From: an uncultured Spirochaetota bacterium
GTDB lineage: Bacteria; Spirochaetota; Spirochaetia; SZUA-6; Fen-1364
Assembly (NCBI GenBank): GCA_963781885.1
Contig: CAWAHW010000006.1
Coordinates: 1 to 64,000, forward strand
Direction of reading: 5' to 3'
Length of the DNA: 64,000 nt
Below the pieces are notes generated by a model. That model was not told the DNA's origin and did no database searches. It was given only the letters and a program-made list of their open reading frames with translations. Numbering within the stretch: position 1 is the first letter of the stretch; every line of letters starts with the position of its first letter. The position numbers were made by a program, and so were the translations under genes. Below are positions 1 through 63,959 of the stretch, piece after piece.

Positions 1-485
1 CTCTCGAATGCGACGAACGCGGCGCCGCTTCTTGACTAGGCCATAGCGTTTGAGCACCAAGGCGATCGTCGCCACCGAAGGCACCTTCCGCCGACCACCA
101 TACCTCTCCGTGAGCAGCTGAAAGATCTTCAGCGGACCCATGCGAGGCCACCTGCCTCGTATTCGTACGATTGCCCGCTCGATGCTCGGTGCAGTGCGGT
201 TCCACACCCGCCGCGGAGCCCGCGATTGCTCCTTGAGTCCCGCTACACCCCGCAACAGATAGCGCAGTATGTAGCGGTAACCTAAAGTACGGGAGATACC
301 ATAAGATTTGCACAGAGCAGTGAACGTGTGCTGGCCTGACTCCCACTCAAGAACGAAACTAGCCTTTTCGTCCATCGCTGACCGTTCCCTCCAGGGCATC
401 CCGCTCTCCTCTCGGAGAAAACGTCGCCCAAAAAAGTGTCAACGATGTGCTTAGAATTCTGTCAACGATGTGCTTAGACAGGACC
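1..485 (-). mobile_element. IS481-family element A, partial copy (transposase 5' end and terminal repeats)
   Basis: Matches the end of the full copies at 29687-31005 and 34262-35580; ends ...TTAGACAGGACC. Confidence 0.93.
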
Positions 486-2194: not shown

Positions 2195-2414
2195 GACTCA
2201 GTTCAGTTTTCCAGAGAAAGCAACGGCCTACGTGCGCCTGCCAGTCCAGCTTTGCCTGCAAACAGTCGCAATAGAACACGATCAAAGCAATTGCTCAAGC
2301 AGCGCCGTATAACATAAAGTTGAGTACCCGGCCCGAATCAAAGAGCGAGATTGTGTACGAGGACGGCCCTGGCACTATGCAGTTGAAATCTCAGCCGGAG
2401 TACTCCAACGCTTT

Positions 2415-2697
2415 GTTATGTCCAAGGCAGAAATGGCTAGAATTCAAGACGATCCAAAGTCTATTCCTTTGTCAGGAATTGCGTTCCGCAGTCATAGCCG
2501 GAGCGGCCATGCCACGGTGCGCGCGAATGGTCAGACGGTGAGGCGCGGCAGAAAAGGTGCGGCAGTCGTCCCGAAAGCTTTCGGACCAATGGCCGCGTAG
2601 CTACAAAGGTTCCAGATAGACTTGAATTGTAGAAGACTCCGAAACCTTCCCCCGAGCCCACATGAAGGTGTAAGAGTCGAATTCCTTTGGACATAAC
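2415..2697. other. ORF-less cassette, diverged member of non-coding family 1 (candidate structured ncRNA)
   Basis: Shares ordered motifs with the 11744 family: AAGGCAGAA, ATTCCTTT, GAATTGCGT, GAGCGGC, TGCCACGGT, CTTTCGGACCA, GGCCGCG, GAAGACTC, GAAGGTG. Confidence 0.7.
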
Positions 2698-4195: not shown

Positions 4196-4810
4196 GCTAC
4201 GCTCCTTTGCGTATCCAGTATATGTGCCCAAGAAGAGCCTAACATAGAGTTGAGCACCCGGCCCGAATCAGACAAAAATCACAAAGATTTGCCCCGGAAG
4301 CGGGTCTAATGGAACAAATTCTGGCCCGGAGTGCTCCAACGATTTGTTATGCGTTTTACAGTTCTCCGTCAATTGTATCAATAGATTTTGCCCAAGGAAT
4401 CCTCCCGATGCACGTCAATAAGCATGAAACGGAGCTCATGTTCGCCCGGTCGAGAGCCGCACCTTTGGCAACGGCCAGCTTGCATAGAGTTCATCTACAA
4501 CTCACTCCACCTTCTCCTCGAAGAGCTTCTCCATACTGCTCGGCTAGATGTGACGTAGGACGGACTCAGTGGAGCCGTTGACATGCGTAAAAGGGGTATA
4601 GGCGACCGTCGATTTACCCAATTGATCCGCATCTGCCAGATCGTTTTGCACAAAGAGATCAAGCAACAAACGGCATTATGCCAGCACGTATCAAGGTCAA
4701 TGCGAGACCTTGGGAGCAGGGCGTATTAGGATCCGGACGTTTGGAAGTAGAAAGTTTTGCCTGCGGTGATTCCGTCTGCATCTCCGGAGGCAAAATGCTT
4801 TGCCCTGCTA

Positions 4811-6182
4811 TCACGGCGCTGAATCAAGAGCCTTTAGGCGAGTTTGAATATCTGCGAGACGATCTTCGTTTGGCGCAGGCATGCTAGGGATCACGGCGAA
4901 TTGCAACGCGCCCAGTATTCCGACCAGGGCGCCGACTCCGAGCATGCCATACCCCTCATACTGGAAGACATTCGCGGTTATGGCACCTTGAGGGAACATG
5001 CTGCCAAGATAGACAAAGGCCCCTCCGATCGCCCCCCAGTAGAGAAAGTTGCCTAGAGCGCTCGCACCTCTGATCTTTGCGTCACCAATGTTTTTGCTTG
5101 CTAAAGCGATCTCCAGAGAAATCTTTGTTTCTTCTGATAGGAGCACAGCTCTCTGGGCAGCACGGCTGGGCTGAAGGTCCGGAGAGAAAACGATGATTCC
5201 CCCCGGGGTTCCCTCAATTCTTGCTGTATAGGGATCAAAATCCGGGTGCCTGAGCCCGATCTGGTGCGCTCCAGCGGGAAGACTCACCGACAAGGGGCTC
5301 ACGCCGATTTGCAGGCCATCAATGGAAACATCCATCCCGGCGACTTTTGTCTGGATGCTCAAGCTGAATGCATCTGCTGAAGCATTCGAGCTCTTTTTTC
5401 GATTCCTCAGCCGTCGGGGTGAAATAAAAGTTATCCGTCAATGAGCTTGAAACGAATGGGACCTGCAGTTCGCCTGTTGCGGAGGCCACGTCGCGTCTTA
5501 CCTGGTTGAGAAGTGAATTGATCTCCAGACCCTGGGTGCGGATGTACTTGAGAAGGGTCTCTGTGAATAAGCCATTGTGGCCAGCACCATCGCTTGCCAC
5601 TTGGCCGGGACCCGTTGAAAAGACAACCATTGTGGAGAGTTGCGTCTTTTGAATGGTCAGCCCGCGACTCATGGTCCGAGTCGTCCGCGTGAAAGGATTG
5701 TCCCTGCAGGCGTCCAGTATGAGAAGGGCGTTTTTGGGCCGGACGGCACTCACACGCCCAAGGATATCGTCCACTGCAACGCCCTTCGACTTGACATCCT
5801 CCGGCGTCTGGGGCGCAAGGTCGATAGGGATGATGTAATTTCTTCCTTCGATCTGAATTCCATGTCCGGCATAGAAAACCAGGGCTGTATCGCCGACCTG
5901 AATTGAGGCGGCAAAATCATCCAAGGCCTTGAGTATGGCTTTCTGCCCGCCGTTGACAAGAAGGGTGGCTTGGAACCCAAGAGATGTGAGGGTCGAGGCC
6001 ATATCCCGGGCGTCGTTTTCGGGATTGATGAGCGGGGCTGATGGATATGCAAAGTTGCCTATGACCAACGCCTTACGCCCTGAGTCAGCCCATCCGGCAC
6101 ATACGGCAGAAATGAGGACGAGCGCAATCACGATAGCCTTGGGGACGTACAGACCGTAACGATTCAAGCTGGCTATTCTCAT
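4811..6182 (-). CDS. Caspase-family (peptidase C14) protein with PEGA domain and C-terminal TM helices; frameshift at the A6 run near 5395
   Basis: Signal peptide, ALVIGN, FYAGHG and LDACR dyad (5319-6182); the PEGA/TM part (4811-5362) continues in the +1 frame. Confidence 0.8.
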
Positions 6183-7582
6183 TTGTTCTTCTCCAATTTG
6201 TCAAGCGCGGCATCAATTGCCGCCAATGGATCGTCGTAGGCCTTTGTGCTGGCTTTGGGGGCAAAGTATAGGTAGGCCAGCCCAGCGAGGGCGCCGATTC
6301 CCAAAGAGATACCTGAAGCAATTCCCATCTCGCTTGAAGTGACACCTCGAATCGGACTGCTGGGATCAGACGGATTTCCGTTTTGTTCTACGGTCCAGGT
6401 GATTCCTGTAAAGATAAGGAGGCTTGCGGATACCCCCATCCCACCCCAAAAGGTATCCTTGGAAAGTTCTTTCGCCGCGGCTGCCGGGAGTGAAGCGGCA
6501 GCAAAGGCGCTGCGCTTGCGAACCAGATCCTGCTTTTCGACGAGCAGCTCCGAGATCTGGAAGTTTCGATTAGGCAGCAATTGAGGGGTCGACACGACGC
6601 GTTGCAGAGGAGAACCCGTCACGTCTTCCTCGAGACTCTCTTTCAATGGGTGGCGATAGAGAACATGGTGAGGTCCTGAGGGGAGCTCTAGCTCGAAATG
6701 GGCGCGACACCTGCACGGACTCCATCAACGAAGACCTCGAGCCCTTCCAAACTGCTTTCAACGGAGAAGGAAAAGGTTGATCCGCTAAATGCGGCGTTGG
6801 CTGTTCCGGGCAGGAAATACCAGTCGTCAAGAAGTGCATTCGTCGCAACCGGAACCAGACGTGAGGTCGATAGTGAGGCTTTGCGAACGCTATTGATGAT
6901 TTGATTCAGCTCAAGGCCAGGAAACCTGAGCGCGCTTGCAAGCGTTTTGGTGAAGGTGCCGATCTTGCCGTCGAACGTCGCGACTTTCCCCTGCTCCGCC
7001 CGCGTACAGCATCAGGGTATTCGGAAGCCCTCCTGTGAGTGAAAAGCCCGCGCTGACCTTGTCGATCGAAAGGACGGGATGATTTCGGTTCCCATCGATA
7101 AAAACTGCAAGCGATACTCCCTTTGCTCCCAAGCCGGCGCAGAGTCGGTCGAGCGGCATGGCTTCGAACTCTATGTCCGCTGCTGACCGTATTAATGCAT
7201 TCGTCGGAAGGAGATAATTTACGCCCTCATAGGAAAAACCGACACCTGAATAATAGATGCAAACCCTGTCGCTTGAAGTTGGACGTTCCTCGAAGGTTTG
7301 GATAAGTTCGGCTAGCTCGCGTCGGCCTAGGTCCTGCTTGAAAACGACCTGAAACCCATCTTGAGTAAGGGCCTTCTCCATGAGTCGTCCTTCATCGAGG
7401 GCTTCGGGAATATTCAGGTCTGCGTACTTGCTCTCGACAATGACAAGGCCATAGTCCGCAGAATGCAACGGTGAAGCGCTGGCGATGATCAAGAGTGAGG
7501 CGAAGAAGAGGGAGAGCATGAATTGCGTGGTGCAAGATATTGTCCGATAGTTCCCAAATGAATTGCCACTTGTACCAATCAT
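6179..7582 (-). pseudogene. Paralogous caspase-like + PEGA + TM gene with degenerate catalytic dyad and multiple frameshifts
   Basis: YYSGVG and IDGNR replace YAGHG and LDACR. The shifted frame after ~6985 reads GKVATFDGKIGTFTKTL...LEVFVDGV (PEGA) and then joins 6179-6646. Confidence 0.7.
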
Positions 7583-8329
7583 AGGCTCTCCTCCGCTTCT
7601 GCTCCCAGTTTAGAGTGACGGAGCTGTTTGTCAAGGCAGATTGGAATCATACCCATCTCGAGATCCTCCTTCGAAGCCATTTTTCGCATTGCACTCGCGT
7701 CGCTTTTTCTGCCATGGGCGATAACATCCAACAGTACTCCCTCGTCCTCCACATATTCGGGACAGGCTCGGCTACCCAGTCGGCTCGACAAGAAGACGGA
7801 ACTGTCCTATCTTGCCGAAGATGGCCGCAAACAACTCGCGCGAGACCGGGACTTCGGGCATTTTGAAATGTAACGAGCATGGCAAATTGCCTTTGCCCCG
7901 GTTTTGATCACCTTCCACCAAGGTGCTGTCATCGTCAAAGGCTCCACGCTCTTCGGAAGCGTAGTCTAGCGGAAAAAGCTTCCCAGGTTGCATGCGAGAG
8001 CGAAGAACCTATTGGATGAGCCAAACGTCGCGGTGGTGATTATGCAAGTCAATGATTATGCGAGCCAAATAGTGGAAAACAGCGATCGTTTGGTCGAGGT
8101 CAAGCATTCCATCTATGTCATCTACAGATTTGGGCCCTTACGTCGCATAGAACTTGCGAATCCATCGAAGGACCATTTTGTGCAAAACGCATAACATAGA
8201 GTTCAGCACCCGGCCCGCATCAGACAGCACCACACCGATTGGCACCGGCGGCGGGTCAATTGGAGCAGATTCTGCCTGGAGTGCTGCAACGACTTGTTAG
8301 AAGGCGCCTTCACCAGCCGGCCTATTGCC

Positions 8330-10899: not shown

Positions 10900-11469
10900 G
10901 TGAGACTTGATAACCCACCGCCTATGGCGGTGGTGATGTCCTGATGGCTATGCCGTAAGACGGAATGCGAATAAAATCGAAACATGACGAAATGAAAAAA
11001 ACAATCGCACGTGGTCTACCAGTGCAGCTATCACATAGTATGGTGCCCCAAGTATAGATTTCGAATACTTGAAGGTGCTGTAGCGAAGTACGTCGAAGGA
11101 CGTATCAGGGCGATCTGCGAATGGAAGGATAGTGGAATAGAGGAACTGAATGTGATGAAAGATCATGTGCATCTGGTGGTAAACGTTCCTCCAAGGGTAT
11201 CGATATCAGAACTGATGGGGATTTTGAAGGGCAAGACAGCAATAGGAATATTTCAAAACTACAAGAGCTTGAAGCGGAAACCATACTGGGGAAATCATTT
11301 CTGGAGCCGCGGCTATTGCGTAACGACGATAGGGCTGGATGAAGAGAAGATACGTCGCTACGTACGATACCAGGAAGAAAACGAGCGGCTCGAAGAGAAA
11401 GAGCACGAAGAAGCAGGCCTCTTTTAGAGGCCGGGGTTCAAAACCACCTCCTCTGGAGGTCGATGCTTT
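10900..11469 (+). mobile_element. IS200/IS605-family element (tnpA only); ends approximate
   Basis: Subterminal hairpins CCACCGCC-TAT-GGCGGTGG (~10915-10933) and ACCTCC-TCT-GGAGGT (~11446-11460) flank tnpA. It is inserted upstream of the OsmC gene. Confidence 0.85.
11011..11427 (+). CDS. tnpA: Y1 HUH transposase
   Basis: YHIVWCPKYR, DHVHL (HUH), FWSRGY and YVRYQ motifs. Confidence 0.93.
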   Translation: MVYQCSYHIVWCPKYRFRILEGAVAKYVEGRIRAICEWKDSGIEELNVMKDHVHLVVNVPPRVSISELMGILKGKTAIGIFQNYKSLKRKPYWGNHFWSRGYCVTTIGLDEEKIRRYVRYQEENERLEEKEHEEAGLF

Positions 11470-11743
11470 ATTGGTTGTAGCAGCACTATAGAAGGTATCT
11501 GGCGGAAATCAAGTCCTTGGAGGTAGAAGCAATATGCTTCCTCCCTATAGAAATGACGTAGCGACAATAGCGCGTCTGCAATGGTTGGCAGTGGCCGTCA
11601 AGACGAGGCCTTTTACTCCAAAGGAATCTGGAATGGGCATAACATAGAGTTCAGCACCCGGCCCGCATCAGAATTGCACCACACCGATTTGCTTCGGAAT
11701 TGGGTCTTTCCTACAGATTCTGCCTGGAGTGCTGCAACGACTT

Positions 11744-12091
11744 GTTATGTTCAAGGCAGAATGGATTTGTAGTCTACGCTATGCAGAAGTCAATTCCTTT
11801 GGCCAGAATTGCGTCCGTAGGTTTTGCCAAGAGCGGCGTTGCCACGGTCTGCGGGGATTGAACAATAGGTACGAGCGCAAAGCCGAGCGCGGCTCTGTCT
11901 CCCGCTGCATCCGGACTGAACGGAGAGAAGAAATACTTGATCGTCCAGGCTTGGGACACCGGAAAGAAAAAGTCTTTCGGACCAGAGGCCGCGATGTTTC
12001 AGAGGTCCAAATGAACCTAACCTCTTGAAGACTCTTCAACTATCCAAAGATTCTGGAAGAAGGTGAAAGTTCAATTTCCTTAGAACATAAC
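11744..12091. other. ORF-less cassette, non-coding family 1 copy 1
   Basis: ~345 bp unit repeated at 45035, 51193, 54722 and 63612; frame-breaking indels between copies. Confidence 0.85.
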
Positions 12092-14873: not shown

Positions 14874-15082
14874 AGCTTATGCTACCTCAGAACAGCATAA
14901 CATAGAGTTGACCAGCGCCGCCGCATCATCCAGCCCCACCCGACGATTAGAAGGACGTTGGGTCTATCCAGACAAATTGCTAGGCGACTGGTCCAACGAT
15001 TTGTTAGCCACACCTGTCAGAAATCGACAGCAACAGGATGGGGTAGGGCAGTATTCCAACAGGGATTGTCTTGTTCTATGAT

Positions 15083-15373
15083 CTATGCTCCTAGCGCCTG
15101 AGCTACAGCATCCGGGTTAATAGAAGCCACCCTCAATAGGGCTTGTGCTGGGCCTTCCGGTTTGCGTCGTCCCTGTTCCCAGTTCTGAAGTGTGGCAATG
15201 CTTACCCCAATCATTAAGGCGAACTCACTTTGAGACTTATGTAGTTTCTCACGGATTGCCCGTACGTCTGCGGAGTTGAATACCGTTACCCTTGAAGGCT
15301 TAACTTTGCCGCGCTTGATTTTCCCAGCCTGCTTGATGCTCTGTGCAAGCTCCTTGAAATCCATGGTGTTCAT
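15083..15373 (-). CDS. Xre/HTH antitoxin (HigA-like)
   Basis: SQSEFALMIGVSIATLQNWEQGRR HTH; overlaps the toxin stop codon. Confidence 0.88.
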   Translation of the reverse strand: MNTMDFKELAQSIKQAGKIKRGKVKPSRVTVFNSADVRAIREKLHKSQSEFALMIGVSIATLQNWEQGRRKPEGPAQALLRVASINPDAVAQALGA

Positions 15374-15687
15374 TTGAACTCCCTTTCTACCAACTGCCTC
15401 AGGATCTTGGTCTGCTGGGCAGTGAGGTCTTCTTGTTCATTTTTCGGATACAGATATAGCATGTAAATAGCGTCTGACGGTCTGTCCCAATAGTAGATAA
15501 GTCGGTACCCACCACGTTTGCCGTGTCCCTTGCCGGCCCATCTCAGTTTGCGGAGACCACCCGTTCCAGGAATAAGTGCCCCTTGTTCGGGACGTAGCAC
15601 CAGTGCTGTTTGGAGCAGCCGATACTCATCATCAATCAGTTTTTGGTTGACGATCTTTGTAAATGTCGGCGTCTCCATGAACTTCAT
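15370..15687 (-). CDS. RelE/HigB-family toxin
   Basis: IPGTGGLRKLRW..GKRGGYRLIYY motif. Confidence 0.9.
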   Translation of the reverse strand: MKFMETPTFTKIVNQKLIDDEYRLLQTALVLRPEQGALIPGTGGLRKLRWAGKGHGKRGGYRLIYYWDRPSDAIYMLYLYPKNEQEDLTAQQTKILRQLVEREFK

Positions 15688-15692
15688 ATCTA

Positions 15693-15721
15693 AAAGTACG
15701 CCAATGGCGGATAGTTGTCAA
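15693..15721 (-). promoter_or_regulatory. Sigma70-type promoter of TA cassette with palindromic operator
   Basis: TTGACA-17 bp-TACTTT, 5 nt before the ATG; CGCCATTGGCG palindrome in the spacer. Confidence 0.7.
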
Positions 15722-15911
15722 GTGCTGTCTATAGCCAAATCTTTCTTGGTTGTGGCTAACATAGAGTTCAGTACCCGGCCCGCATCAGAACCAAGGCACA
15801 CCGATTTGCTCCGGAACTGGGTCTTTCCAACTAAATTCACGCCGGAGTACTGCAACGATTTGTTATACGCACAACCGTATTCTACGGCCCAACAGGCGAT
15901 AATCAATGAGT

Positions 15912-18514: not shown

Positions 18515-20034
18515 CCCTAACGTTGCATAAAAAGATCGCTATGCAGAGGCATCCAGGGCTGCCAGATATGTTTGGAACTCTTTACGTGTGATTTCGTTGC
18601 CGCTCAGGGTAAGTCGTAGCCGCCCCTGCGGTCTGGTCAGTCGACCTGCCCTGTGGAGAAGCACCTGACGAATGGTCGTTGCCTCGCGGAAGCTCCATAA
18701 AGGTGACCGTTTCGCTGTCGTGGTCCGATCCTTTGTGCAGCTTTTGATATGAAGCTCACGAAAAAGATTATGCGCGATCACTGCCGAAAGAAAGTACCAC
18801 TGGTTGCCGGCCAGGCGACGCACGGGGACATAATCCATCTGGCACTGGTCCTTCAATTCTGAGAACATGTTCTCCTGCGACGCCCTCCCGTTGTGAAACA
18901 AGAGGATTCCCTTCGCCTTACCTCGCTTGTTGGTGACGATCACCTTGAACTCGTAGCCTTCTTCGTGAGGAACAAAGAGCTCCAACTGGACAGGTTCCTT
19001 TCGTTGCTTTTTCACCTTGTGGCGGAGGAACAGAAACCGATAGTGTTTGCTCCAGCAGTTCGGCGACCAGGGCAACTCGAAGTACGACCACTCGGAATCC
19101 AGGCGCTGCCACGTGCTCCTGGATTCAATGATCTCCTTCAACTCGGAGAATCGCTCGAAGGGAACGGAGATGCTAAACTCGACTTTCTGGGAGTCCAGAA
19201 AACTCACTGTTTCATCGCTGAAAAACGCTGAATCCTTACGCGACTCCACAATCACACCGGGCAGCTGAGCTCGCACCGCGGCCACGCACGCCCCAATGAA
19301 AGCAAGTGAGCCCTTGGAGTCGTGCACGTTGCCTGGCCGATGATGGGCATCCAGGACTTGACCGCTTTGCGCGACGGTGCAGAACAACGGGTAGTAGCTT
19401 CTGGCCCCCTTCTTTTTATCATTATACCCGATGGCCGTCCCCTCGGCGTAACGGCCGCTGGAGATCACCGAGCCATCGAAGTCCAAGGTGACCCGTGCCA
19501 GCCCCTGATGTTCAAGACGTTGCAGGACCAAAGCACGATTGAACTCTTGAAGGTTGGCAACGCTGTGCGCATCAGCCCGACAGAGCATCCGACTCACCGT
19601 ACAGACATGAGGCAGCCGCCGCAATCCCAGTGCTCGTCGAATCAGCGGGTCCTCTCGGTAGCGATCAATATCACGCAGCCGACGGTAGCCCAGCATCAAG
19701 TGCAGGATCATCAACAAGGCGACGCTGTGAAACCCTACCACGGAACCCTTCTTCCGATGGGTGAAGCATCGCTGTAGTTTGCCCGCGACATCCATGTTTT
19801 TGAAAAGGGCTTGTAGTACCACGGTCCCAGAAAAAGATGTCAAGCGTTGATCTTCGAAGCGAAGCTCGGGGAACTTGTAGACGCGGGAGTGGATTTGTGC
19901 TCTACTGGGTTTCACGTTTGGTGGCCTCCTGGTCGGTAGATCTGACTCTTGGCGGAATCAGGATTTGCCATATCAGGACGCCACTTTTTCATCTACACGT
20001 CAAGCGAATATCTGCCTTTTATGCATCTGTAAGG
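18515..20034 (-). mobile_element. IS1380-family element
   Basis: Inverted repeats CCCTAACGTTGCATAAAA / CCTTACAGATGCATAAAA; TTAA target duplication at 18511-14 and 20035-38. Confidence 0.88.
18539..19915 (-). CDS. IS1380-family DDE transposase
   Basis: LTSFSG, TLDFDGS, GYN..KKG..SYYPL, RPGNVHD, DSAF and HNGRASQEN motifs. Confidence 0.9.
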   Translation of the reverse strand: MKPSRAQIHSRVYKFPELRFEDQRLTSFSGTVVLQALFKNMDVAGKLQRCFTHRKKGSVVGFHSVALLMILHLMLGYRRLRDIDRYREDPLIRRALGLRRLPHVCTVSRMLCRADAHSVANLQEFNRALVLQRLEHQGLARVTLDFDGSVISSGRYAEGTAIGYNDKKKGARSYYPLFCTVAQSGQVLDAHHRPGNVHDSKGSLAFIGACVAAVRAQLPGVIVESRKDSAFFSDETVSFLDSQKVEFSISVPFERFSELKEIIESRSTWQRLDSEWSYFELPWSPNCWSKHYRFLFLRHKVKKQRKEPVQLELFVPHEEGYEFKVIVTNKRGKAKGILLFHNGRASQENMFSELKDQCQMDYVPVRRLAGNQWYFLSAVIAHNLFRELHIKSCTKDRTTTAKRSPLWSFREATTIRQVLLHRAGRLTRPQGRLRLTLSGNEITRKEFQTYLAALDASA

Positions 20035-20402
20035 TTAAGAGTGCGAGATAGCAACCGCACAAGTGTCTTTCGGAAGCCAAAGCCTAACACAAGTACGGAG
20101 ACAGGCCACACAAGAGCTTTTATGAGATCGATTATTTCGCTCACGCGAGCCTCCCTTTCTAAGATGGGCCTAACATAGAGTTGAGCACCCGGCCCGCATC
20201 AGACAAAGATCACAAAGATTTGCACCGGCCGCGGGTCTACTGGAGCAGATTCGGCCTGGAGTGCTCCAACGATTTGTTATGTTCATCCTCTTCCTTCAAT
20301 CAATGGCGTTCACGGGGCTGCAAAATCCACGGGTTCGGTCAAGATATGTGGGATCTGAGGACGGTGCCAATCTCTTTTTAAGAGATCGGCCGATTGGGAC
20401 AC

Positions 20403-20431
20403 TTGACATACCCTATTTAATAGGGTATATT
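20403..20431 (+). promoter_or_regulatory. Promoter with palindromic operator for the reverse-oriented TA cassette
   Basis: TTGACA-17 bp-TATATT; ATACCCTATT-T-AATAGGGTAT palindrome. Confidence 0.75.
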
Positions 20432-20442
20432 GCCGTTATCAC

Positions 20443-20769
20443 ATGAAGCGAATGTTCATTGAGACAAATGAATTCCGAAAGCGTTGGGCCAAGTTGGGAC
20501 TTAGCGAGGAGGATCTGCGCGAGCTCGAAGGTTTCTTGCTCGAACATCCTGATGCCGGTGATATGGTGCAAGGCACTGGTGGTGTTCGTAAGGTTCGTTG
20601 GGCCCGCCCCGGTCGTGGGAGATCAGGAGGGGTGCGAACCATTTACATGGACTTTGCAAACAGAGAGACGACATGGTTGATCACGGTCTTTGGAAAGAAC
20701 GAGAAAATGGATCTATCAGCCGAAGAGCGAGGAGAGATAAGGCTCTTCGTGAAACGAATCAAGGGGTGA
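20443..20769 (+). CDS. RelE/HigB-family toxin
   Basis: GTGGVRKVRW..GRSGGVRTIY motif. Confidence 0.9.
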   Translation: MKRMFIETNEFRKRWAKLGLSEEDLRELEGFLLEHPDAGDMVQGTGGVRKVRWARPGRGRSGGVRTIYMDFANRETTWLITVFGKNEKMDLSAEERGEIRLFVKRIKG

Positions 20770-20773
20770 GGTT

Positions 20774-21091
20774 ATGTCAAAAGCATATGAGAGCATCGCG
20801 AGAGGTCTTGCAGAAATCGAGGCCCACGCGAAGGGAAAGATCAAGCTGCAGACCACAGTCCTCATGGTAACACCAACGCCTCAGTACGATGCAAAGGCGG
20901 TGAAGAGGATTCGACAAAGTCTGAAGCTTCCTCAACGTGCATTTGCTAAGTTATGCGGCGTCTCGGACAAGACAGTAGAGGCCTGGGAATCAGGACGAAA
21001 CGTACCCAATGGAAGTGCACGAAGGCTGTTTGAGTTGATCGAGAAAGACCAAGGAATCCTTACGCGTGAAGGTGTGCTTGTGACGTTGTGA
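20774..21091 (+). CDS. Xre/HTH antitoxin
   Basis: QRAFAKLCGVSDKTVEAWESGR helix-turn-helix. Confidence 0.88.
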   Translation: MSKAYESIARGLAEIEAHAKGKIKLQTTVLMVTPTPQYDAKAVKRIRQSLKLPQRAFAKLCGVSDKTVEAWESGRNVPNGSARRLFELIEKDQGILTREGVLVTL

Positions 21092-21340
21092 TTGCGACCG
21101 CATTGAGGGCTCTGACATCCGCCCCAATGAGGCACCGGGCGGTTACAATCGATAGATGCAGTCTACAGATGGCAGCTATCGGAGGCGGAAACCGGACTTG
21201 GTTGAACATAACATAGAGTTGAGCACCCGGCCCGCATCAGACAAAGACCACAAAGACTTGCACCGGAAGCGGGTCTATTCAAGGAAATTCGGCCTGGAGT
21301 GCTCCAACGATTTGTTAGGCGTTTTCTTTGGCTTATGCAG

Positions 21341-23089: not shown

Positions 23090-24409
23090 TGTCCTAACTA
23101 ACACATCGTTGACACTTTTCGCAGCACATCCTAACAGTTATCTCGCTGCCCTAACCAAGCGGCCGAGCTCATCCTGGATGCGCAGCTGCCGCTCGTCAAG
23201 ATAGCCTAACAGGGTGTCGCGGTAATACACGCGCCACTTGCCCTTCACGATCTGCTCCAGTCCGACGTACTTCTCGATCAGCGTTGTGCTGACGACGACC
23301 CACTTGCTGGAGCCCCAGCGGATTGCCCCGTTGCGGCAAACGTATTTCGTGCACATGCCTTCTGGATACTTCCAGGTCCTAGTTATGCGTGGAAGGCGGC
23401 GAGGGGAGTGGCGGTAGAACTCCTTGGGCCTCCTCTGTCCCAGCGTCTGATGAGGACGCTGCACGTTGTAGAAATGACGAAAGGCGTCGAACTTGTGTTG
23501 CTGCTGGACCAGGCTGTAGGCGGCCGGCTTTGTGGCCTCAGCCTTTAGCTCTTCGTGCATCCGCTCGTGACTACCGTTCTGCTCGGGGTGAGCCGGGTCA
23601 GAATAGACCGGCTGGATCCCCAGATCCATGAGCCAGACGGCAAGCCGCGTAAGCCGCGAGAGGCTCACCCCACTGGCGAAGGGCTCTCCGTTGTCACTGT
23701 GGATATCGTTTGGGCAAACCGTACTTCTTGAAAAGGGCCTCAAATACGGCCTTTGTGCCCTCATATGTGGGATTATGCATTCCCACCACCGCCAGCACAA
23801 AGCGGCTGTAGGCGTCCATGACGGTCAGCGGGTAGCAGTAGCGCCCGTCGCCCATGCGGAACTTCCCTTTGAAGTCCACGCTCCAGATCTCGTTGGGGGC
23901 CTTCGCCTCAAAGATCGGGTGCATCTCTCGAATGCGACGAACGCGGCGCCGCTTCTTGACTAGGCCATAGCGTTTGAGCACCAAGGCGATCGTCGCCACC
24001 GAAGGCACCTTCCGCCGACCACCATACCTCTCCGTGAGCAGCTGAAAGATCTTCAGCGGACCCATGCGAGGCCACCTGCCTCGTATTCGTACGATTGCCC
24101 GCTCGATGCTCGGTGCAGTGCGGTTCCACACCCGCCGCGGAGCCCGCGATTGCTCCTTGAGTCCCGCTACACCCCGCAACAGATAGCGCAGTATGTAGCG
24201 GTAACCTAAAGTACGGGAGATACCATAAGATTTGCACAGAGCAGTGAACGTGTGCTGGCCTGACTCCCACTCAAGAACGAAACTAGCCTTTTCGTCCATC
24301 GCTGACCGTTCCCTCCAGGGCATCCCGCTCTCCTCTCGGAGAAAACGTCGCCCAAAAAAGTGTCAACGATGTGCTTAGAATTCTGTCAACGATGTGCTTA
24401 GACAGGACC
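23090..24409 (-). mobile_element. IS481-family element A, copy with frameshifted transposase (~23705)
   Basis: Same as the other copies plus a net 1-bp insertion that splits the ORF into 23138-23800 and 23694-24323. Confidence 0.93.
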
Positions 24410-25793: not shown

Positions 25794-27110
25794 TCAGGAC
25801 GACTTCATCAGTTGTTCGATCGTTTGGCGAAGCTTGCTTTCCATTTCTTTCATGCCCCTTGGGGTGAACTCGTACACGATGCACCGCAAGGCCTTCAGGT
25901 CAAAAGGAACGTCATCCATGGTCTGACTGACAAGGATTACATCTTTGCCCAGTGCATGGGCGAGCCCAACTTCATAGAAGACATTTGCGTTGCGCCCTGT
26001 AAGATCAGCAATGATTACTCGGGCACGGTTTATCCTCTCCCAAATTTCAAACACCACTTGGCGAGTGCCAAACACGTCATCGGCGCGGAAACATGACAGT
26101 CCAACTGACGAGACTGTTGGCTTGATATGATCAACGTACACAGCTTTCAGGTTCTCTGCAAACGGCATTAGGACGAAGCATAAATTAGGATCAAGACTAA
26201 ATGAGGCACCGCCGAATACTTTCCCTATTGTCTCAAGACTTTGGTGCCCTTTGCTCCCTTCCTCAACTTTCTTGCCCGATGCTGTCTTGGATTGCGTAAC
26301 GTTTCCTGACTTGGGCTCGATAGGAGCAGCTTGTTGAGGAGACTGTTTTGCAGTTGTCTGAGCGGTTGCTGGTGTCTTGAATATTGAATCAAACAGATTA
26401 TCGCCTTTGCCAAACATCCCGAATAGGTCGGTGTAAGTACTTTGCTGGGCAGCCTCTAGAAGCTTCTGAAGCTCATCCGCTTTCTGTTTCATGCCGTCAC
26501 TATCGCCGGCTTCAAGCAGCAGTCCCAAGTCAGCCAGGGTCTGCTCTACCCGCCGGTCACTCTCATTCATTGAATCTGATTCTTGCCGGGTTCTAAGATA
26601 CTTCTCTGCTTGATAGATCATCTCATTTGCGTGTGTATCATTTTCAATTTTACGAACTTCAACTACGTCGGCTTCCGAATCGTTTTTGGCCTGCTTTAAG
26701 AGTTCTTCGATCTTCTCATTTGTCAGGGTCTCGCTAGCGTTCGTTGTTTCCACCGTCATCTGTTGTTTTGAAAGCTTCTCAACTGCTGTAACCTTAACTG
26801 AAAAGTCGCGATCGATGTCAAAAGAAACAGAAATCTGTGGCTTTCCTTTCTCCATAGGCTCTATTCCGCGAAGGTCTGCTCTTGCCAGCTCCATGTTCTT
26901 ATTGGCAAGCTGGCTTTCGCCCACAAGTATGCGAATAGTTACGATTTCTTGATTGTCAGAAGCTGTTGAAAACGTGCAGGCCCTCTTGGTCGGAAGGGGT
27001 GTCCCACGCATTGCCAGCGGAGTTGAAATGCCACCTAACGTCTCAATTCCCACCGTTAGCGGTAGAAATTTGTACTCTTTAGATTCTTTGGGCATGCTTT
27101 CGCCTTTCAT
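25794..27110 (-). CDS. Hsp70 (DnaK) substrate-binding/lid domain fused to a TIR-like/nucleoside 2-deoxyribosyltransferase-like domain
   Basis: N-terminal PLTVGIETLGG..TFSTASDNQ..GKPQISVSFDID; C-terminal CFVLMPF..RADD..IADLTGRNANVFYEVGLAHALGK. Confidence 0.85.
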   Translation of the reverse strand: MKGESMPKESKEYKFLPLTVGIETLGGISTPLAMRGTPLPTKRACTFSTASDNQEIVTIRILVGESQLANKNMELARADLRGIEPMEKGKPQISVSFDIDRDFSVKVTAVEKLSKQQMTVETTNASETLTNEKIEELLKQAKNDSEADVVEVRKIENDTHANEMIYQAEKYLRTRQESDSMNESDRRVEQTLADLGLLLEAGDSDGMKQKADELQKLLEAAQQSTYTDLFGMFGKGDNLFDSIFKTPATAQTTAKQSPQQAAPIEPKSGNVTQSKTASGKKVEEGSKGHQSLETIGKVFGGASFSLDPNLCFVLMPFAENLKAVYVDHIKPTVSSVGLSCFRADDVFGTRQVVFEIWERINRARVIIADLTGRNANVFYEVGLAHALGKDVILVSQTMDDVPFDLKALRCIVYEFTPRGMKEMESKLRQTIEQLMKSS

Positions 27111-29686: not shown

Positions 29687-31005
29687 TGTCCTAACTAACA
29701 CATCGTTGACACTTTTCGCAGCACATCCTAACAGTTATCTCGCTGCCCTAACCAAGCGGCCGAGCTCATCCTGGATGCGCAGCTGCCGCTCGTCAAGATA
29801 GCCTAACAGGGTGTCGCGGTAATACACGCGCCACTTGCCCTTCACGATCTGCTCCAGTCCGACGTACTTCTCGATCAGCGTTGTGCTGACGACGACCCAC
29901 TTGCTGGAGCCCCAGCGGATTGCCCCGTTGCGGCAAACGTATTTCGTGCACATGCCTTCTGGATACTTCCAGGTCCTAGTTATGCGTGGAAGGCGGCGAG
30001 GGGAGTGGCGGTAGAACTCCTTGGGCCTCCTCTGTCCCAGCGTCTGATGAGGACGCTGCACGTTGTAGAAATGACGAAAGGCGTCGAACTTGTGTTGCTG
30101 CTGGACCAGGCTGTAGGCGGCCGGCTTTGTGGCCTCAGCCTTTAGCTCTTCGTGCATCCGCTCGTGACTACCGTTCTGCTCGGGGTGAGCCGGGTCAGAA
30201 TAGACCGGCTGGATCCCCAGATCCATGAGCCAGACGGCAAGCCGCGTAAGCCGCGAGAGGCTCACCCCACTGGCGAAGGGCTCTCCGTTGTCACTGTGGA
30301 TCTGTTTGGGCAAACCGTACTTCTTGAAAAGGGCCTCAAATACGGCCTTTGTGCCCTCATATGTGGGATTATGCATTCCCACCACCGCCAGCACAAAGCG
30401 GCTGTAGGCGTCCATGACGGTCAGCGGGTAGCAGTAGCGCCCGTCGCCCATGCGGAACTTCCCTTTGAAGTCCACGCTCCAGATCTCGTTGGGGGCCTTC
30501 GCCTCAAAGATCGGGTGCATCTCTCGAATGCGACGAACGCGGCGCCGCTTCTTGACTAGGCCATAGCGTTTGAGCACCAAGGCGATCGTCGCCACCGAAG
30601 GCACCTTCCGCCGACCACCATACCTCTCCGTGAGCAGCTGAAAGATCTTCAGCGGACCCATGCGAGGCCACCTGCCTCGTATTCGTACGATTGCCCGCTC
30701 GATGCTCGGTGCAGTGCGGTTCCACACCCGCCGCGGAGCCCGCGATTGCTCCTTGAGTCCCGCTACACCCCGCAACAGATAGCGCAGTATGTAGCGGTAA
30801 CCTAAAGTACGGGAGATACCATAAGATTTGCACAGAGCAGTGAACGTGTGCTGGCCTGACTCCCACTCAAGAACGAAACTAGCCTTTTCGTCCATCGCTG
30901 ACCGTTCCCTCCAGGGCATCCCGCTCTCCTCTCGGAGAAAACGTCGCCCAAAAAAGTGTCAACGATGTGCTTAGAATTCTGTCAACGATGTGCTTAGACA
31001 GGACC
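29687..31005 (-). mobile_element. IS481-family element A (1319 bp)
   Basis: Ends TGTCCTAACTAACACATCGTTGACA / GGTCCTGTCTAAGCACATCGTTGACA; tandem TGTCAACGATGTGCTTAGA at the transposase 5' end. Confidence 0.93.
29735..30919 (-). CDS. IS481-family DDE transposase
   Basis: MPW start, HTH, WSVDFKG, HSDNG and QNGSHER motifs. Confidence 0.93.
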   Translation of the reverse strand: MPWRERSAMDEKASFVLEWESGQHTFTALCKSYGISRTLGYRYILRYLLRGVAGLKEQSRAPRRVWNRTAPSIERAIVRIRGRWPRMGPLKIFQLLTERYGGRRKVPSVATIALVLKRYGLVKKRRRVRRIREMHPIFEAKAPNEIWSVDFKGKFRMGDGRYCYPLTVMDAYSRFVLAVVGMHNPTYEGTKAVFEALFKKYGLPKQIHSDNGEPFASGVSLSRLTRLAVWLMDLGIQPVYSDPAHPEQNGSHERMHEELKAEATKPAAYSLVQQQHKFDAFRHFYNVQRPHQTLGQRRPKEFYRHSPRRLPRITRTWKYPEGMCTKYVCRNGAIRWGSSKWVVVSTTLIEKYVGLEQIVKGKWRVYYRDTLLGYLDERQLRIQDELGRLVRAAR

Positions 31006-34261: not shown

Positions 34262-35580
34262 TGTCCTAACTAACACATCGTTGACACTTTTCGCAGCACA
34301 TCCTAACAGTTATCTCGCTGCCCTAACCAAGCGGCCGAGCTCATCCTGGATGCGCAGCTGCCGCTCGTCAAGATAGCCTAACAGGGTGTCGCGGTAATAC
34401 ACGCGCCACTTGCCCTTCACGATCTGCTCCAGTCCGACGTACTTCTCGATCAGCGTTGTGCTGACGACGACCCACTTGCTGGAGCCCCAGCGGATTGCCC
34501 CGTTGCGGCAAACGTATTTCGTGCACATGCCTTCTGGATACTTCCAGGTCCTAGTTATGCGTGGAAGGCGGCGAGGGGAGTGGCGGTAGAACTCCTTGGG
34601 CCTCCTCTGTCCCAGCGTCTGATGAGGACGCTGCACGTTGTAGAAATGACGAAAGGCGTCGAACTTGTGTTGCTGCTGGACCAGGCTGTAGGCGGCCGGC
34701 TTTGTGGCCTCAGCCTTTAGCTCTTCGTGCATCCGCTCGTGACTACCGTTCTGCTCGGGGTGAGCCGGGTCAGAATAGACCGGCTGGATCCCCAGATCCA
34801 TGAGCCAGACGGCAAGCCGCGTAAGCCGCGAGAGGCTCACCCCACTGGCGAAGGGCTCTCCGTTGTCACTGTGGATCTGTTTGGGCAAACCGTACTTCTT
34901 GAAAAGGGCCTCAAATACGGCCTTTGTGCCCTCATATGTGGGATTATGCATTCCCACCACCGCCAGCACAAAGCGGCTGTAGGCGTCCATGACGGTCAGC
35001 GGGTAGCAGTAGCGCCCGTCGCCCATGCGGAACTTCCCTTTGAAGTCCACGCTCCAGATCTCGTTGGGGGCCTTCGCCTCAAAGATCGGGTGCATCTCTC
35101 GAATGCGACGAACGCGGCGCCGCTTCTTGACTAGGCCATAGCGTTTGAGCACCAAGGCGATCGTCGCCACCGAAGGCACCTTCCGCCGACCACCATACCT
35201 CTCCGTGAGCAGCTGAAAGATCTTCAGCGGACCCATGCGAGGCCACCTGCCTCGTATTCGTATGATTGCCCGCTCGATGCTCGGTGCAGTGCGGTTCCAC
35301 ACCCGCCGCGGAGCCCGCGATTGCTCCTTGAGTCCCGCTACACCCCGCAACAGATAGCGCAGTATGTAGCGGTAACCTAAAGTACGGGAGATACCATAAG
35401 ATTTGCACAGAGCAGTGAACGTGTGCTGGCCTGACTCCCACTCAAGAACGAAACTAGCCTTTTCGTCCATCGCTGACCGTTCCCTCCAGGGCATCCCGCT
35501 CTCCTCTCGGAGAAAACGTCGCCCAAAAAAGTGTCAACGATGTGCTTAGAATTCTGTCAACGATGTGCTTAGACAGGACC
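34262..35580 (-). mobile_element. IS481-family element A with intact transposase 34310-35494
   Basis: CCAA target duplication; the empty site is visible in the paralogous cassette at ~57948-57962. Confidence 0.95.
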
Positions 35581-36704: not shown

Positions 36705-36875
36705 GGCTCAGTAACGCCCCCGATGTGACGCCCTATAACATGGAGTTGAGCACCCGGCCCGCATCAGACAAAAACCACAAAGACTGGCACCGGAAGCGGG
36801 TCTATTGGAGCAGATTCTTAGCCCGGAGTGCTCCAACGATTTGTTATGTCCAATCTATTTTCAAATGGCGTTAGG

Positions 36876-37292
36876 TCATCCGTTAGTTCGTTCTGTGTTC
36901 TTCATTATTTCCCAAAACTGTCTTGGCTGTATGATCGGAATGCCTTTGTGCTTCTTGAGTACTAGCAAGTCCTCATCCCCAGTAATGATGTAATCTGCCA
37001 ACGCTTGTTCAGCAAGGGCAATGATATGGTCATCATTTTGATCCCTTGAAATGCGTTTGCCTAGCGGTTTGACATGAAAAACAGTTGAATGCTCTTTTAG
37101 GTATTCAAGGGTGTCTTGGATAGTTTGAGGTGGAACTTTTAGCTTCCGTTTCAACGCGTCAGCTATCTCGTTAAGTATTTCCGAACTCAGGTATAGATCT
37201 TGCTGGTCCAGGCACATCTCAAATACAGCATGACATAGTCCCTGCGTGGCGAATGCTGCAACTATCACGTTTGTGTCTAGCACAACTTTCAT
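36876..37292 (-). CDS. PIN-domain toxin
   Basis: VVLDTNV, DDHII and ITGDEDLL motifs. Confidence 0.92.
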   Translation of the reverse strand: MKVVLDTNVIVAAFATQGLCHAVFEMCLDQQDLYLSSEILNEIADALKRKLKVPPQTIQDTLEYLKEHSTVFHVKPLGKRISRDQNDDHIIALAEQALADYIITGDEDLLVLKKHKGIPIIQPRQFWEIMKNTERTNG

Positions 37293-37507
37293 GATATGGT
37301 GCGAAAGACATCCTCGTCCGTAAGGATTCCTTGTGCTCCAGCAAAAGGTAGAACAGTGTTGCGGAGCCGCCGAAAGTTATAGACTGAGACAAATTTCTGA
37401 ATTGACTCCCGAACAAGGTCGCTTATGGGTTTAGCTTCGTTGTCGCTTATTTGCTGCAGTTCTTTCCGCAATTCATCGGGCAGCCGTACTGTAACCGCTT
37501 GTTTCAT
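37289..37507 (-). CDS. Ribbon-helix-helix (CopG-like) antitoxin
   Basis: VTVRLPDEL..SDLVRE; upstream TTGACA-17-TACGTT. Confidence 0.85.
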   Translation of the reverse strand: MKQAVTVRLPDELRKELQQISDNEAKPISDLVRESIQKFVSVYNFRRLRNTVLPFAGAQGILTDEDVFRTIS

Positions 37508-37828
37508 GGGTCACCTCGTACCCGTAACGTACTACGTTGTCATACATTTGTCAAGTATTCCAGCTTGCTTCCCGCCTATCGAGGTAAAGATATCAATCTG
37601 CCCGAAATGTATCAGAAAGGTGGTTTTCTCAATCAAATTTGTACGAAAACAGACTCTGATTGGACATAACACAGAGTTCAGTACCCGGCCCGCATCAGAA
37701 CGGCACCACAGAGATTTGCACCGGCCGCGGGTCTATTCGACAAGATTCTAGCCCGGAGTACTGCAACGATTTGTTATGCGGACCCTCTTTCCTATAGTTC
37801 TTGGTTTCATTCTACGTGTTTGCCACAG

Positions 37829-43014: not shown

Positions 43015-43325
43015 TTGACCCGGTAGGTCCCCGTTTGCCTTTCACGACATCCTGAATACACTTGCCGAACGGCATATTACGCAAATTTCAGCCAACCTAA
43101 CATAGAGTTGACCAGCGCCGCCGCATCATCCAGCCCTACATTGACGATTAGGAAGACGTTGGGTCTATCCAGACAAATTCCTAGGCGACTGGTCCAACGA
43201 TTTGTTATACCCATCTTTGACCCAGATGCAACATCGCTATCCGGGGTTCAATGATACCCTAGGTACCGAGGAGAAAGACAGAGCCGACGCTTGACGGGTA
43301 CATACCATGCGTGGTATATTCCAGC

Positions 43326-44025: not shown

Positions 44026-44184
44026 GTCCAGTGGTCCATAGATGGGTATAACATAGAGTTGAGCACCCGGCCCGCATCAGAGCAAGACATTGTGTATTGG
44101 GACAGCGGCGACTGAATCAAGCCAAATTCTTGCCCGGAGTGCTCCAACGATTTGTTATGCCGTCCTCTTTTCTTACCCCAAATA

Positions 44185-44586: not shown

Positions 44587-44589
44587 GTT

Positions 44590-44817: not shown

Positions 44818-45034
44818 GAATCTATTGTATACACGGGGTGTATCCTCAGTCAAGTCCAAGCGCCGACTATCATTAACTATAGGGAAGACGGCAAAAGGTC
44901 GCCTATAAGAACCCATTTCTTGGGACGGCATAACATAGAGTTCAGCACCCGGCCCGCATCAGATTGCACTACGCCGATTTGCACCGAAAGCGGGTCTATT
45001 CAAGGAAATTCAGCCTGGAGTGCTGCAACGACTT

Positions 45035-45383
45035 GTTATGTTCAAGGCAGAATGGACTTGTAGTCTACGCTACGCAGAAGTCAATTCCTTTGGCCAGAAT
45101 TGCGTCCGTAGGTTTTGCCAAGAGCGGCGTTGCCACGGTCTGCGGGGATTGGGCAACAGGTACGGGCGCAAAGCTGAATGCGGCTCTGTCTCCCGCTGCA
45201 TCCGGACTGAACGGAAGAGAAGAAATACTTGATCGTCCAGGCTTCGGACACCGGAAAGAAAAAGTCTTTCGGACCAGAGGCCGCGATGTTTCAGAAGTCC
45301 AAATGAACCTAACCTCTTGAAGACTCTTTAGCTATCCAAAGATTCTGGAAGAAGGTGAAAGTTCAATTTCCTTAGAACATAAC
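45035..45383. other. ORF-less cassette family 1 copy 2
   Basis: Homolog of 11744-12091. Confidence 0.85.
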
Positions 45384-49021: not shown

Positions 49022-49151
49022 TTCGGCAAACCTACATTCTTGAACCTAACATATAGTTGAGCACCCGGCCCGCATCAGAGCCGCATCACCTCGATTTGCT
49101 CCGGAATTGAGCCTATCCAGGAAAATTGAGTCCGGAGTGCTCCAACGTGTT

Positions 49152-50923: not shown

Positions 50924-51192
50924 AGAAAATGCCTCCAGATGGTAATTACATTATATATACCGAGAAGGCAATTTGTCAAGCCTGCAAAAGAACGTGTACT
51001 AGCTATGACGGTACGCCTACTCTCCAATTCATTTGTGTACTGAAGATGGCAGCTTCTACTAAAGAGACAAACCGTTCTTGAGCGGATCTAACATAGAGTT
51101 CAGCACCCGGCCCGCATCAGATTGCACTACGCCGATTTGCACCGAAAGCGGGTCTATTCAAGGAAATTCAGCCTGGAGTGCTGCAACGATTT

Positions 51193-51541
51193 GTTATGTT
51201 CAAGGCAGAATGGACTTGTAGTCTACGCTACGCAGAAGTCAATTCCTTTGGCCAGAATTGCGTCCGTAGGTTTTGCCAAGAGCGGCGTTGCCACGGTCTG
51301 CGGGGATTGGGCAACAGGTACGGGCGCAAAGCTGAGTGCGGCTCTGTCTCCCGCTGCATCCGGACTGAACGGAAGAGAAGAAATACTTGATCGTCCAGGC
51401 TTGGGACACCGGAAAGAAAAAGTCTTTCGGACCAGAGGCCGCGATGTTTCAGAAGTCCAAATGAACCTAACCTCTTGAAGACTCTTTAGCTATCCAAAGA
51501 TTCTGGAAGAAGGTGAAAGTTCAATTTCCTTAGAACATAAC
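51193..51541. other. ORF-less cassette family 1 copy 3
   Basis: Near-identical to 45035-45383, including the attC. Confidence 0.85.
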
Positions 51542-54448: not shown

Positions 54449-54721
54449 AATCAATGTTCACATATTTGCTAACTTTCGTCAAGCTGAATTTGTATATCCG
54501 CCTGACTGTGCTAGACAAAAGCTCGAGGGGCGGGGGAGTCAGGCAGGGATGCCTGATCCCCGCCCCGAGACCGTGCATGCTATGCCCTGGGGCAATCAAT
54601 CAATTTCAGAGTGGTCATAACATAGAGTTCAGCACCCGGCCCGCATCAGAACAGCACCACACCGATTTGCTCCGGAATTGGGTCTTTCCTACAGATTCTG
54701 CCTGGAGTGCTGCAACGACTT

Positions 54722-55072
54722 GTTATGTTCAAGGCAGAATGGACTTGTAGTCTACGCTATGCAGAAGTCAATTCCTTTAGCCAGAATTGCGTTCGTAGGT
54801 TTTGCCAAGAGCGGCGTTGCCACGGTCTGCGGGGATTGAACAATAGGTACGAGCCCAAATCCGAGCGCGGCTCTGTTTCCCGCTGCATCCGGACTGAAGG
54901 GAAGAGAAGAAATACTTGATCGTCCAGGCTTGGGACACCGGAAAGAAAAAGTCTTTCGGACCAAGAGGCCGCGATGTTTCAGAGGTCCAAATAGACGTAA
55001 CCTCTTGAAGACTCTTCAACTATCCAAAGATTCTGGAAGAAGGTGAAAGTTTCATTTTCCTTTGAACATAAC
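54722..55072. other. ORF-less cassette family 1 copy 4
   Basis: Homolog of 11744-12091 with indels. Confidence 0.85.
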
Positions 55073-63491: not shown

Positions 63492-63611
63492 TGTCTCTCC
63501 TGAAATCTAACATAGAGTTCAGCACCCGGCCCGCATCAGATTGCACTACGCCGATTTGCACCGAAAGCGGGTCTATTCAAGGAAATTCAGCCTGGAGTGC
63601 TGCAACGATTT

Positions 63612-63959
63612 GTTATGTTCAAGGCAGAATGGACTTGTAGTCTACGCTATGCAGAAGTCAATTCCTTTGGCCAGAATTGCGTCCGTAGGTTTTGCCAAGA
63701 GCGGCGTTGCCACGGTCTGCGGGGATTGGGCAATAGGTACGGGCGCAAAGCCGAGCGCGGCTCTGTTTCCCGCTGCGTCCGGACTGAACGGAAGAGAAGA
63801 AATACTTGATCGTCCAAGCTTGGGCACCGGACAGAAAAAGTCTTTCGGACCAGAGGCCGCGATGTTTCAGAGGCCCAAATGAACCTAACCTCTTGAAGAC
63901 TCTTCAACTATCCAAAGATTCGAGAAGAAGGTAAAAGTTCAATTTCCTTCGAACATAAC
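63612..63959. other. ORF-less cassette family 1 copy 5
   Basis: Homolog of 11744-12091 with indels. Confidence 0.85.

Follow-up and report, generated by a model that had tools for sequence, protein, structure and literature searches.

The window analysed here (64,000 nt, positions C6:1-64000) was almost entirely an array of integron gene cassettes. A repeat of 100-130 nt with ..TAAC and GTTA.. ends was revealed by repeat finding at more than 30 places in the window, and the attC motif occurred 71 times across the genome, with related repeats on further contigs. The integrase gene intI was identified beyond the window end (C6:69485-70420, + strand; TIGR02249, 400.8 bits against a cut-off of 265), and the last cassette before it ended at about C6:68131. 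Gene and array are divergent, which is the classical arrangement. Cassettes were delimited by cutting the attC boxes at the crossover TAA/C, which gave at least 77 cassettes from C5:300479 to C6:68131, and the array probably continues across contig breaks, being longer than the ~100 kb seen on C5 and C6. Its G+C content was 49.5%, against about 63% for the genome. Of 66 cassettes, with the small ORF-poor families left out, 59 had their longest ORF on the minus strand. Since intI is divergent, since these longest ORFs lie on the minus strand, and since each body moves together with the attC on its low-coordinate side (see below), the array is read along the minus strand of the window. The integron is chromosomal, large and sedentary. 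Among 60 relatives, 9 had a small number of attC sites of related type, so related integrons exist in the genus. In addition, attC sites of the same type but in opposite orientation were present at contig ends (C4:792460-807178 and C1:1613-2878), and a second integron-integrase gene, above the cut-off, was located distant from the array (C5:114967-115890, - strand; TIGR02249, 316.9 bits).

The array is a target of several mobile elements. An insertion sequence with a 394-aa rve-type transposase occurred in 3-4 copies of 100% identity (window positions 1-400, 23090-24320, 29687-30920 and 34262-35495), one of them apparently split into ORFs of 220 and 209 aa. An IS200-like Y1 transposase (11011-11427, +) was carried by a cassette and a DDE_Tnp_1_4 transposase (18539-19915, -) by another; the former adjoins copy 1 of the family described below. 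An unusually long cassette (4243-8194, 3952 nt) encoded two caspase-domain (Peptidase_C14) proteins and a PEGA-domain protein, and the match of a 438-aa cassette protein (25794-27110, -) was confined to the C-terminal region of Hsp70 (profile positions 390-598). Nine cassettes carried toxin-antitoxin genes of the RelE, PIN, Gp49/HigB-like, Doc, MazF and ParE types (14901-15759, 20174-21211, 36739-37669, 43101-44051, 44052-44933, 50221-51091, 51541-52353, 53618-54620 and 60751-61685), those at 20174 and 43101 with their genes on the + strand, against the array. There was also a second small family of two cassettes (49050-49407 and 52354-52710; 357-358 nt, 94% alike, longest ORF 51-52 codons), which is possibly another non-coding cassette; no relationship between this pair and the family studied here was found by nhmmer.

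The family under study is the most repeated cassette of the array, as the initial annotation had stated: other cassette repeats reached 2 copies and the insertion sequence 3-4. Eight copies were found in the genome, 90-99% alike. Six of them are on C6 and the other two close to the end of C5, a spread of ~90 kb provided that C5 joins C6. Identity to copy 1 was 91-100% (BLAST E 2e-132 to 3e-174 over the eight genome copies). Three copies were 99% alike and the remainder 90-97%, and the most diverged (C5:307485, 90-92%) is the one farthest from intI. The five copies earlier placed at 11744, 45035, 51193, 54722 and 63612 were recovered by repeat finding and alignment, the fifth running to about 63958. 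The unit had been drawn at 11744-12091, which corresponds to the body of copy 1; the cassette itself is larger. By TAA/C segmentation, and by the similarity among copies, which runs from TAAC to ..CATAA, the whole of copy 1 spans 448 nt (11643..12090, - strand), made up of its own attC on the low-coordinate side (11643..11750, -), which co-varies with the body subfamily, and a non-coding body of 49-51% G+C (11751..12090, -), recognised by its composition, flat codon phase and lack of a conserved ORF. Copy 2 (44934..45382, -) and copy 3 (51092..51540, -), the reference in most tests, were delimited by repeat finding, BLAST and segmentation. Copy 4, with two extra bases (54621..55071, -), was delimited by BLAST, alignment and segmentation, and copy 5 (63511..63958, -), close to the window end at 64000, by BLAST and segmentation. 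Segmented lengths ranged from 448 to 451 nt.

The low-side attC was identical in the copies at 45041, 51199, 63618 and 66062, and a second type was common to those at 11750, 54728 and C5:312565, while the high-side attC was different in each copy. Because the low-side attC travels with the body and the high-side one does not, each copy consists of a body plus its own attC. Similarity between copies stopped at the attC crossover points. The flanks differed on both sides at all eight copies, the adjoining cassettes encoding unrelated proteins, which means that the unit moves alone. The element is therefore a mobile integron gene cassette, bounded by attC, placed in an array near intI and moved as a single unit. 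In this respect the earlier proposal of an ORF-less sequence spreading as an integron cassette held good, with different neighbours for every copy and similarity ending at the crossovers.

The body ends of the family are inverted repeats that extend the R boxes. A terminal inverted repeat was considered as a special feature of this cassette and rejected, for a match of 9-14 nt between the two body ends is present in nearly all 77 cassettes, and the repeat of the studied family is interrupted by a bulge. Such a repeat is uninformative on orientation. Almost every cassette from C5:300479 to C6:68131 had inverted repeats of 9-14 nt at its body ends, well above the 7-nt core boxes, so the attC stems in this array are unusually long. 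A link with toxin-antitoxin cassettes was also considered. The five window copies have 10 cassettes as neighbours, of which 4 carry toxin-antitoxin genes (Doc, MazF, ParE and Gp49-like); for the other 51 cassettes of the window the figure is 9. The difference was not significant (binomial by hand, ~0.08), and the 43-55 kb region is rich in such cassettes anyway, with five of them alongside three copies of the non-coding cassette.

The cassette is non-coding. As first reported, the copies have no ORF common to all eight and differ by 1-bp indels, of which there were five columns, so that frames are shifted. The 50 variable columns among the eight copies were spread evenly over the codon phases (17/16/17), and differences between the family and its diverged paralog (see below), counted by phase, were 23/20/16 for the 5' half (~50 positions per phase) and about 12/13/15 for the 3' half (38 per phase), the three phases covering all six frames. 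A conserved small ORF, which the initial annotation named as evidence against an RNA, was not seen among the copies. ORFs of 80-118 codons did occur in single copies, several of them beginning inside the attC. A search of 5.8 billion proteins returned only two, both matching ORFs of the genome's own copies, and Pfam gave no family for the ORFs of the paralog.

A diverged paralog, w2300, was found within the same array by a low-stringency search of the genome against itself. This cassette of 384 nt (2313..2696, -; body 2424-2690) was detected by blastn (E 5e-5), tblastx and nhmmer (E 9e-13), and in alignments it was 62-64% identical to the family, with a deletion of 66-67 nt in the centre. A genome-wide nhmmer search with the family profile found nothing beyond the eight copies and this paralog. 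Family and paralog shared 11 identical runs of 7-11 nt (counting runs of at least 7 nt), which together made up 91 of 264 aligned positions. Permuting the matches gave 3.7 +/- 1.4 runs, and none of 5000 permutations reached 11. Outside the single large deletion the alignment has few gaps, so the identical blocks are not mainly an alignment effect. One pair of common blocks is GAATTGCGT and GAGCGGC-NNN-GCCACGGT, separated by a 16-nt spacer, and another common block is CTTTCGGACCA-NN-GGCCGCG. Conservation is thus blocky, and some of the cassette sequence is constrained.

Homologs were sought widely. BLAST with the family body gave no match in 60 relatives and only chance matches in 400 genomes of the class (22-42 nt, E 0.003-0.009), while BLAST with the paralog body gave only chance matches in 150 relatives; these sets of 60 and 150 relatives include all 24 other genomes of the taxonomic family. 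A covariance model, R1 (139 positions, 45 pairs), detected no homolog in 149 relatives, the best foreign hit having an E of 0.26. Exact-pattern scans of metagenome and genome contigs gave no match; the patterns had been chosen before the conserved blocks of the paralog were known, so these blanks are weak for diverged relatives. A 17-mer hit 91 loci in genome contigs, none extending past 19-36 nt around the seed, the only match in viral contigs was confined to the seed, and blastn against plasmids and phages found nothing. Cassette contigs of ~97% identity were present in two public DNA runs from different studies, one 494-nt contig from the second study having 16 differences over 479 nt; the runs listed for this stretch included no RNA run. 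Apart from these close metagenome contigs, no homolog was found outside the genome in relatives, class, plasmids, phages or pattern scans. The Rfam comparison that the initial annotation had called for (Rfam 15) gave no match at the gathering score in the whole window and, with E up to 10, only two meaningless hits at the studied locus (E 6.6 and 10). No intrinsic terminator was conserved in the family. A consensus scan for sigma-70-like promoters gave no site in copy 3 or in the paralog, though that consensus may not fit this host; copy 1 had one weak plus-strand site (9/12 match), created by a subfamily-specific change.

Folding was compared on the two strands. For single sequences on the minus strand, z was -2.59 for copy 3 (1 of 100 shuffles as good) and -2.35 for the paralog (5 of 200), while on the plus strand it was -1.63 (10 of 100) and -0.93 (34 of 200). 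When the minus-strand structure was derived from the family only, the paralog kept 59 of its 86 pairs, against 46.3 +/- 4.1 with random placement of the substitutions (2 of 2000), and 27-46% of pairs remained if partners were slid by 1-3 columns. The corresponding plus-strand structure kept 34 of 65 pairs, with 33-35 expected under both nulls. In the consensus of nine sequences, the minus-strand energy was -75.5 against -56.9 +/- 4.8 for column shuffles (0 of 150), with 61 of 87 pairs kept in the paralog (42.7 +/- 4.8; 0 of 150) and 10 pairs changed on both sides (4.2 +/- 1.8; 0 of 150). On the plus strand these values were -70.3 against -62.1 +/- 5.2 (10 of 150), 46 of 73 pairs against 42.6 (38 of 150), and 7 double changes against 4.4 (22 of 150). 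A separate count on the minus consensus gave 12 pairs changed on both sides, against 3.2 when shuffled and 1-4 when slid; both here and in the column-shuffle test the structure came from the very alignment that was then scored, for which the column-shuffle test corrects by predicting a new structure for each shuffle. The pairwise structure conservation index was only 0.41 (2 of 60 shuffles as good).

The difference between strands arises since G-U pairs become C-A on the opposite strand. The initial annotation described several pairs as G-U only on the + strand, which is true of the AGCUG/CGGCU stem variant; taken over all pairs, however, the minus strand gains more from G-U pairing. One minus-strand pair passed from C-G through U-G to U-A across the copies, a stepwise compensation that would be a mismatch on the plus strand. 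Several measures spoke against a constrained fold. The RNAalifold covariation term, proposed earlier as a check, was +0.6 among the eight copies on the plus strand, and it was +1.93, a penalty, for the nine-sequence minus consensus. With the set of changed columns kept fixed, the new bases had no advantage over permuted bases in fitting the family-only minus structure (414 of 2000 permutations as good). Within the family, 36 of 56 variable columns fell at paired positions, 66% of all positions being paired, and among the eight copies 27 deviating pair-cells were still paired and 30 broken, like the slid controls. The variation among the eight recent copies ignores structure on either strand, and all the comparative structure evidence comes from one diverged sequence, the paralog. 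As a whole, the results are moderate evidence, not proof, that the structure signal lies on the minus, array-sense strand.

Hairpins lie near both ends of the predicted minus-strand fold, which also contains a five-pair hairpin and a long-range helix round a central domain. In copy 1 one predicted hairpin (11791..11811, -) pairs CAATTC with GAATTG and is kept in the paralog as ATTCC..GGAAT by sequence and alignment. The predicted five-pair hairpin GCGGC-NNN-GCCAC (11833..11845, -; helix 12 of the minus consensus) has its five inner pairs unchanged in 9 of 9 rows. The paralog has the same stem with three different loop bases, and one pair of the hairpin, G-U on the minus strand, would be a C-A mismatch on the plus. 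The long-range helix (11889..11993, -; helix 5) would pair GCGGCTCT with AGAGGCCGC and enclose a central domain of ~66 nt, its arms in copy 1 being predicted at 11889-11896 and 11985-11993 (-). Eight of its 12 pairs never vary and one has changed on both sides. A further hairpin of copy 1 is predicted at 11959-11980 (-). The paralog is without the central domain and keeps the closing helix and the inner CCGAAAG..CTTTCGG hairpin, which also appear in its own MFE structure.

The initial annotation proposed an RNA transcribed antisense to the array, that is on the plus strand, or a bottom-strand DNA fold. All five stems that it named exist in copy 1: CAATTC 11791/GAATTG 11806, GCGGC 11833/GCCGC 11988, GGTCTG 11846/CGGACC 11978, AGCCG 11881/CGGCT 11890 and AGAGGT 12001/ACCTCT 12020. 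The paralog retains GCGGC/GCCGC and the CAATTC/GAATTG hairpin, pair 136-143 is CG in four copies and UG in three and pairs as U-G only on the plus strand, and the best-known cassette small RNA, sRNA-Xcc1, also lies against its array (bioRxiv 10.1101/2025.06.18.660453). Read by eye in the alignment of the paralog, however, two of the five stems are broken (AGCCG/CGGCT and AGAGGT/ACCTCT), one keeps 5 of 6 pairs, and two are unchanged or nearly so. With the weak plus-strand z values, a paralog that keeps pairs at chance level, a consensus energy and double changes within the null, and the positive covariation term among the copies, this interpretation is very improbable. A decayed or very small protein gene is just as doubtful. 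A + strand ORF beginning MQKSIPL was intact in two copies (77 and 82 aa), a 60-aa ORF of the paralog shares KSIPL..SG.ATV and K(A/S)FGP.AA with it, a second 1-bp indel restores the distal frame in the copy at 63618, and the plus strand is purine-rich. Against this, the start codon was lost in three copies and an in-frame TGA stood at codon 27 in three others, the C-terminal frames of the two intact ORFs differed, and the first 26 codons had 5 amino-acid-changing and 1 silent difference among copies by hand count. Third positions were not in excess in any phase, neither Pfam (paralog ORFs) nor the protein search gave a relative beyond the genome's own copies, and the minus-strand frame of copy 3 was without a start codon.

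A selfish or neutral non-coding cassette, abundant only through frequent excision and re-insertion by the integrase, is a more serious competitor, though still somewhat unlikely. The shared blocks would then be needed for mobility or be left from common descent. It agrees with eight copies that gather substitutions and indels free of coding or structural constraint, with the three copies 99% alike, which suggest recent bursts, with the greatest divergence (90-92%) in the copy farthest from intI, and with the restriction to one genome (0 of 60 relatives, no real match in 400 class genomes, 0 of 149 by covariance model). Boucher et al. 2006 (PMC1382264), faced with this pattern in Vibrio, likewise gave 'selfish elements' as one of two readings. 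Neutral drift nevertheless leaves both the block-wise conservation in the paralog (0 of 5000) and the strand-specific structure signal unexplained, and the attC and terminal inverted repeat of the family are unexceptional, an end match of 9-14 nt being near-universal and that of the family bulged. The blocks could instead be parts of a DNA element that works in cis, for instance a promoter, operator or other protein-binding module carried by the cassette. It would serve cassettes far from the integron promoter, which would account for copies spread along the array. Short blocks of 7-11 nt with no codon phase, split by free-running sequence, look like binding sites, and the copies do extend over the ~90 kb given above if C5 joins C6; promoter activity of ORF-less cassettes has been shown experimentally (Tansirichaiya et al. 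2019, PMC6557892), and intra-array promoters are known in Vibrio sp. DAT722 (PMC2945992). What makes such an element improbable is the scan that found no sigma-70-like promoter in copy 3 or the paralog and a single 9/12 match in copy 1, with a consensus that may not suit the host, together with the palindrome TTGAAGA-C-TCTTCAA of copy 1, which is absent from copy 3 and the paralog.

The reading preferred here, with a probability of about 0.4, is a non-coding cassette whose conserved content is a structured RNA of the minus, array-sense strand. The integron integrase would have copied the cassette repeatedly by excision and re-insertion, giving the eight copies and the old paralog. The conserved content would most likely be a folded RNA with the reading direction of the array, predicted as a chain of hairpins in which the long-range helix closes the central domain that is absent from the old paralog. 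This RNA may be made within array transcripts or from an unrecognised promoter, and it might be a trans-acting regulator or a cis element for the stability or expression of neighbouring cassettes, a role that is guessed. A bolder version, and an improbable one, is an undescribed class of integron-borne structured RNA, array-sense, with a conserved hairpin core and an optional central domain, that acts locally along the array. Its action at many separate places would then account for the number of copies, for example as an element for RNA stability, processing or insulation of adjacent cassettes; 4 of the 10 cassettes beside the window copies are toxin-antitoxin cassettes.

ORF-less cassettes were already known from Vibrio, as the initial annotation noted. 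Boucher et al. 2006 (BMC Evol Biol 6:3, PMC1382264) described paralogous non-coding cassettes that are bounded by attC and have no ORF signal and no synonymous-site pattern, with 6 copies in DAT722, while two V. vulnificus strains had 45 and 34. Any homologs were very close, and the explanations offered there were 'selfish elements' as against 'promoters or RNA molecules'. In Vibrio, 6-49% of an integron array consists of non-coding cassettes, and the question of what they do goes back to at least 2006 (PMC1382264). Michael and Labbate 2010 found coding as well as non-coding cassettes to be expressed in Vibrio sp. DAT722 (PMC2945992). The present family resembles those cassettes, as described there, in being bounded by attC, in having copies alike from end to end, no synonymous-site pattern and no protein match, in having several paralogs per array, and in having homologs that are close or none. 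It differs in the host (63% G+C genome, 49.5% array), in the type of attC and in having no sequence similarity to them, and also in that the 63%-identical paralog permits a strand-resolved test of structure. The rule of no ORF above 150 bp used by Boucher et al. does not describe it, as single copies carry longer ORFs (80-118 codons) by chance. The family is a further case of the known, still unexplained non-coding paralogous cassettes, with a new sequence and a new host.

A precedent for a cassette-encoded regulatory RNA is sRNA-Xcc1. It is reportedly a small RNA from an integron cassette of Xanthomonas campestris, said to have been described in 2011, and it has an Rfam model. It and the present family are alike in being ORF-less cassette sequence. 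It has been cited as a cassette-encoded small RNA (PMC6557892) and sits with symE, oriented against its array (2025 preprint, bioRxiv 10.1101/2025.06.18.660453). Unlike that RNA, the signal here is array-sense, with no accompanying gene and no Rfam match. Promoter activity was reported for some ORF-less cassettes from the oral metagenome and Treponema (Tansirichaiya et al. 2019, Sci Rep 9:8388, PMC6557892). These are similar to the present family in being ORF-less with a proposed cis role on neighbouring cassettes, whereas no conserved sigma-70-like promoter was found here by consensus scan.

The uncultured host is quite unlike Vibrio, and its array holds recent copies together with an old paralog, so that one can ask whether any of such a cassette is conserved, and which strand matters. 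Conservation is seen in short blocks, with a fold signal that is array-sense, which would make a sense rather than an antisense transcript the relevant target. A real RNA would found a new family and offer a way into the expression or maintenance of large arrays; if there is none, the cassette would be a clear example of one that spreads without serving its host. Should an RNA acting locally along the array turn out to be true, it would be the first function assigned to the paralogous non-coding cassettes known since 2006.
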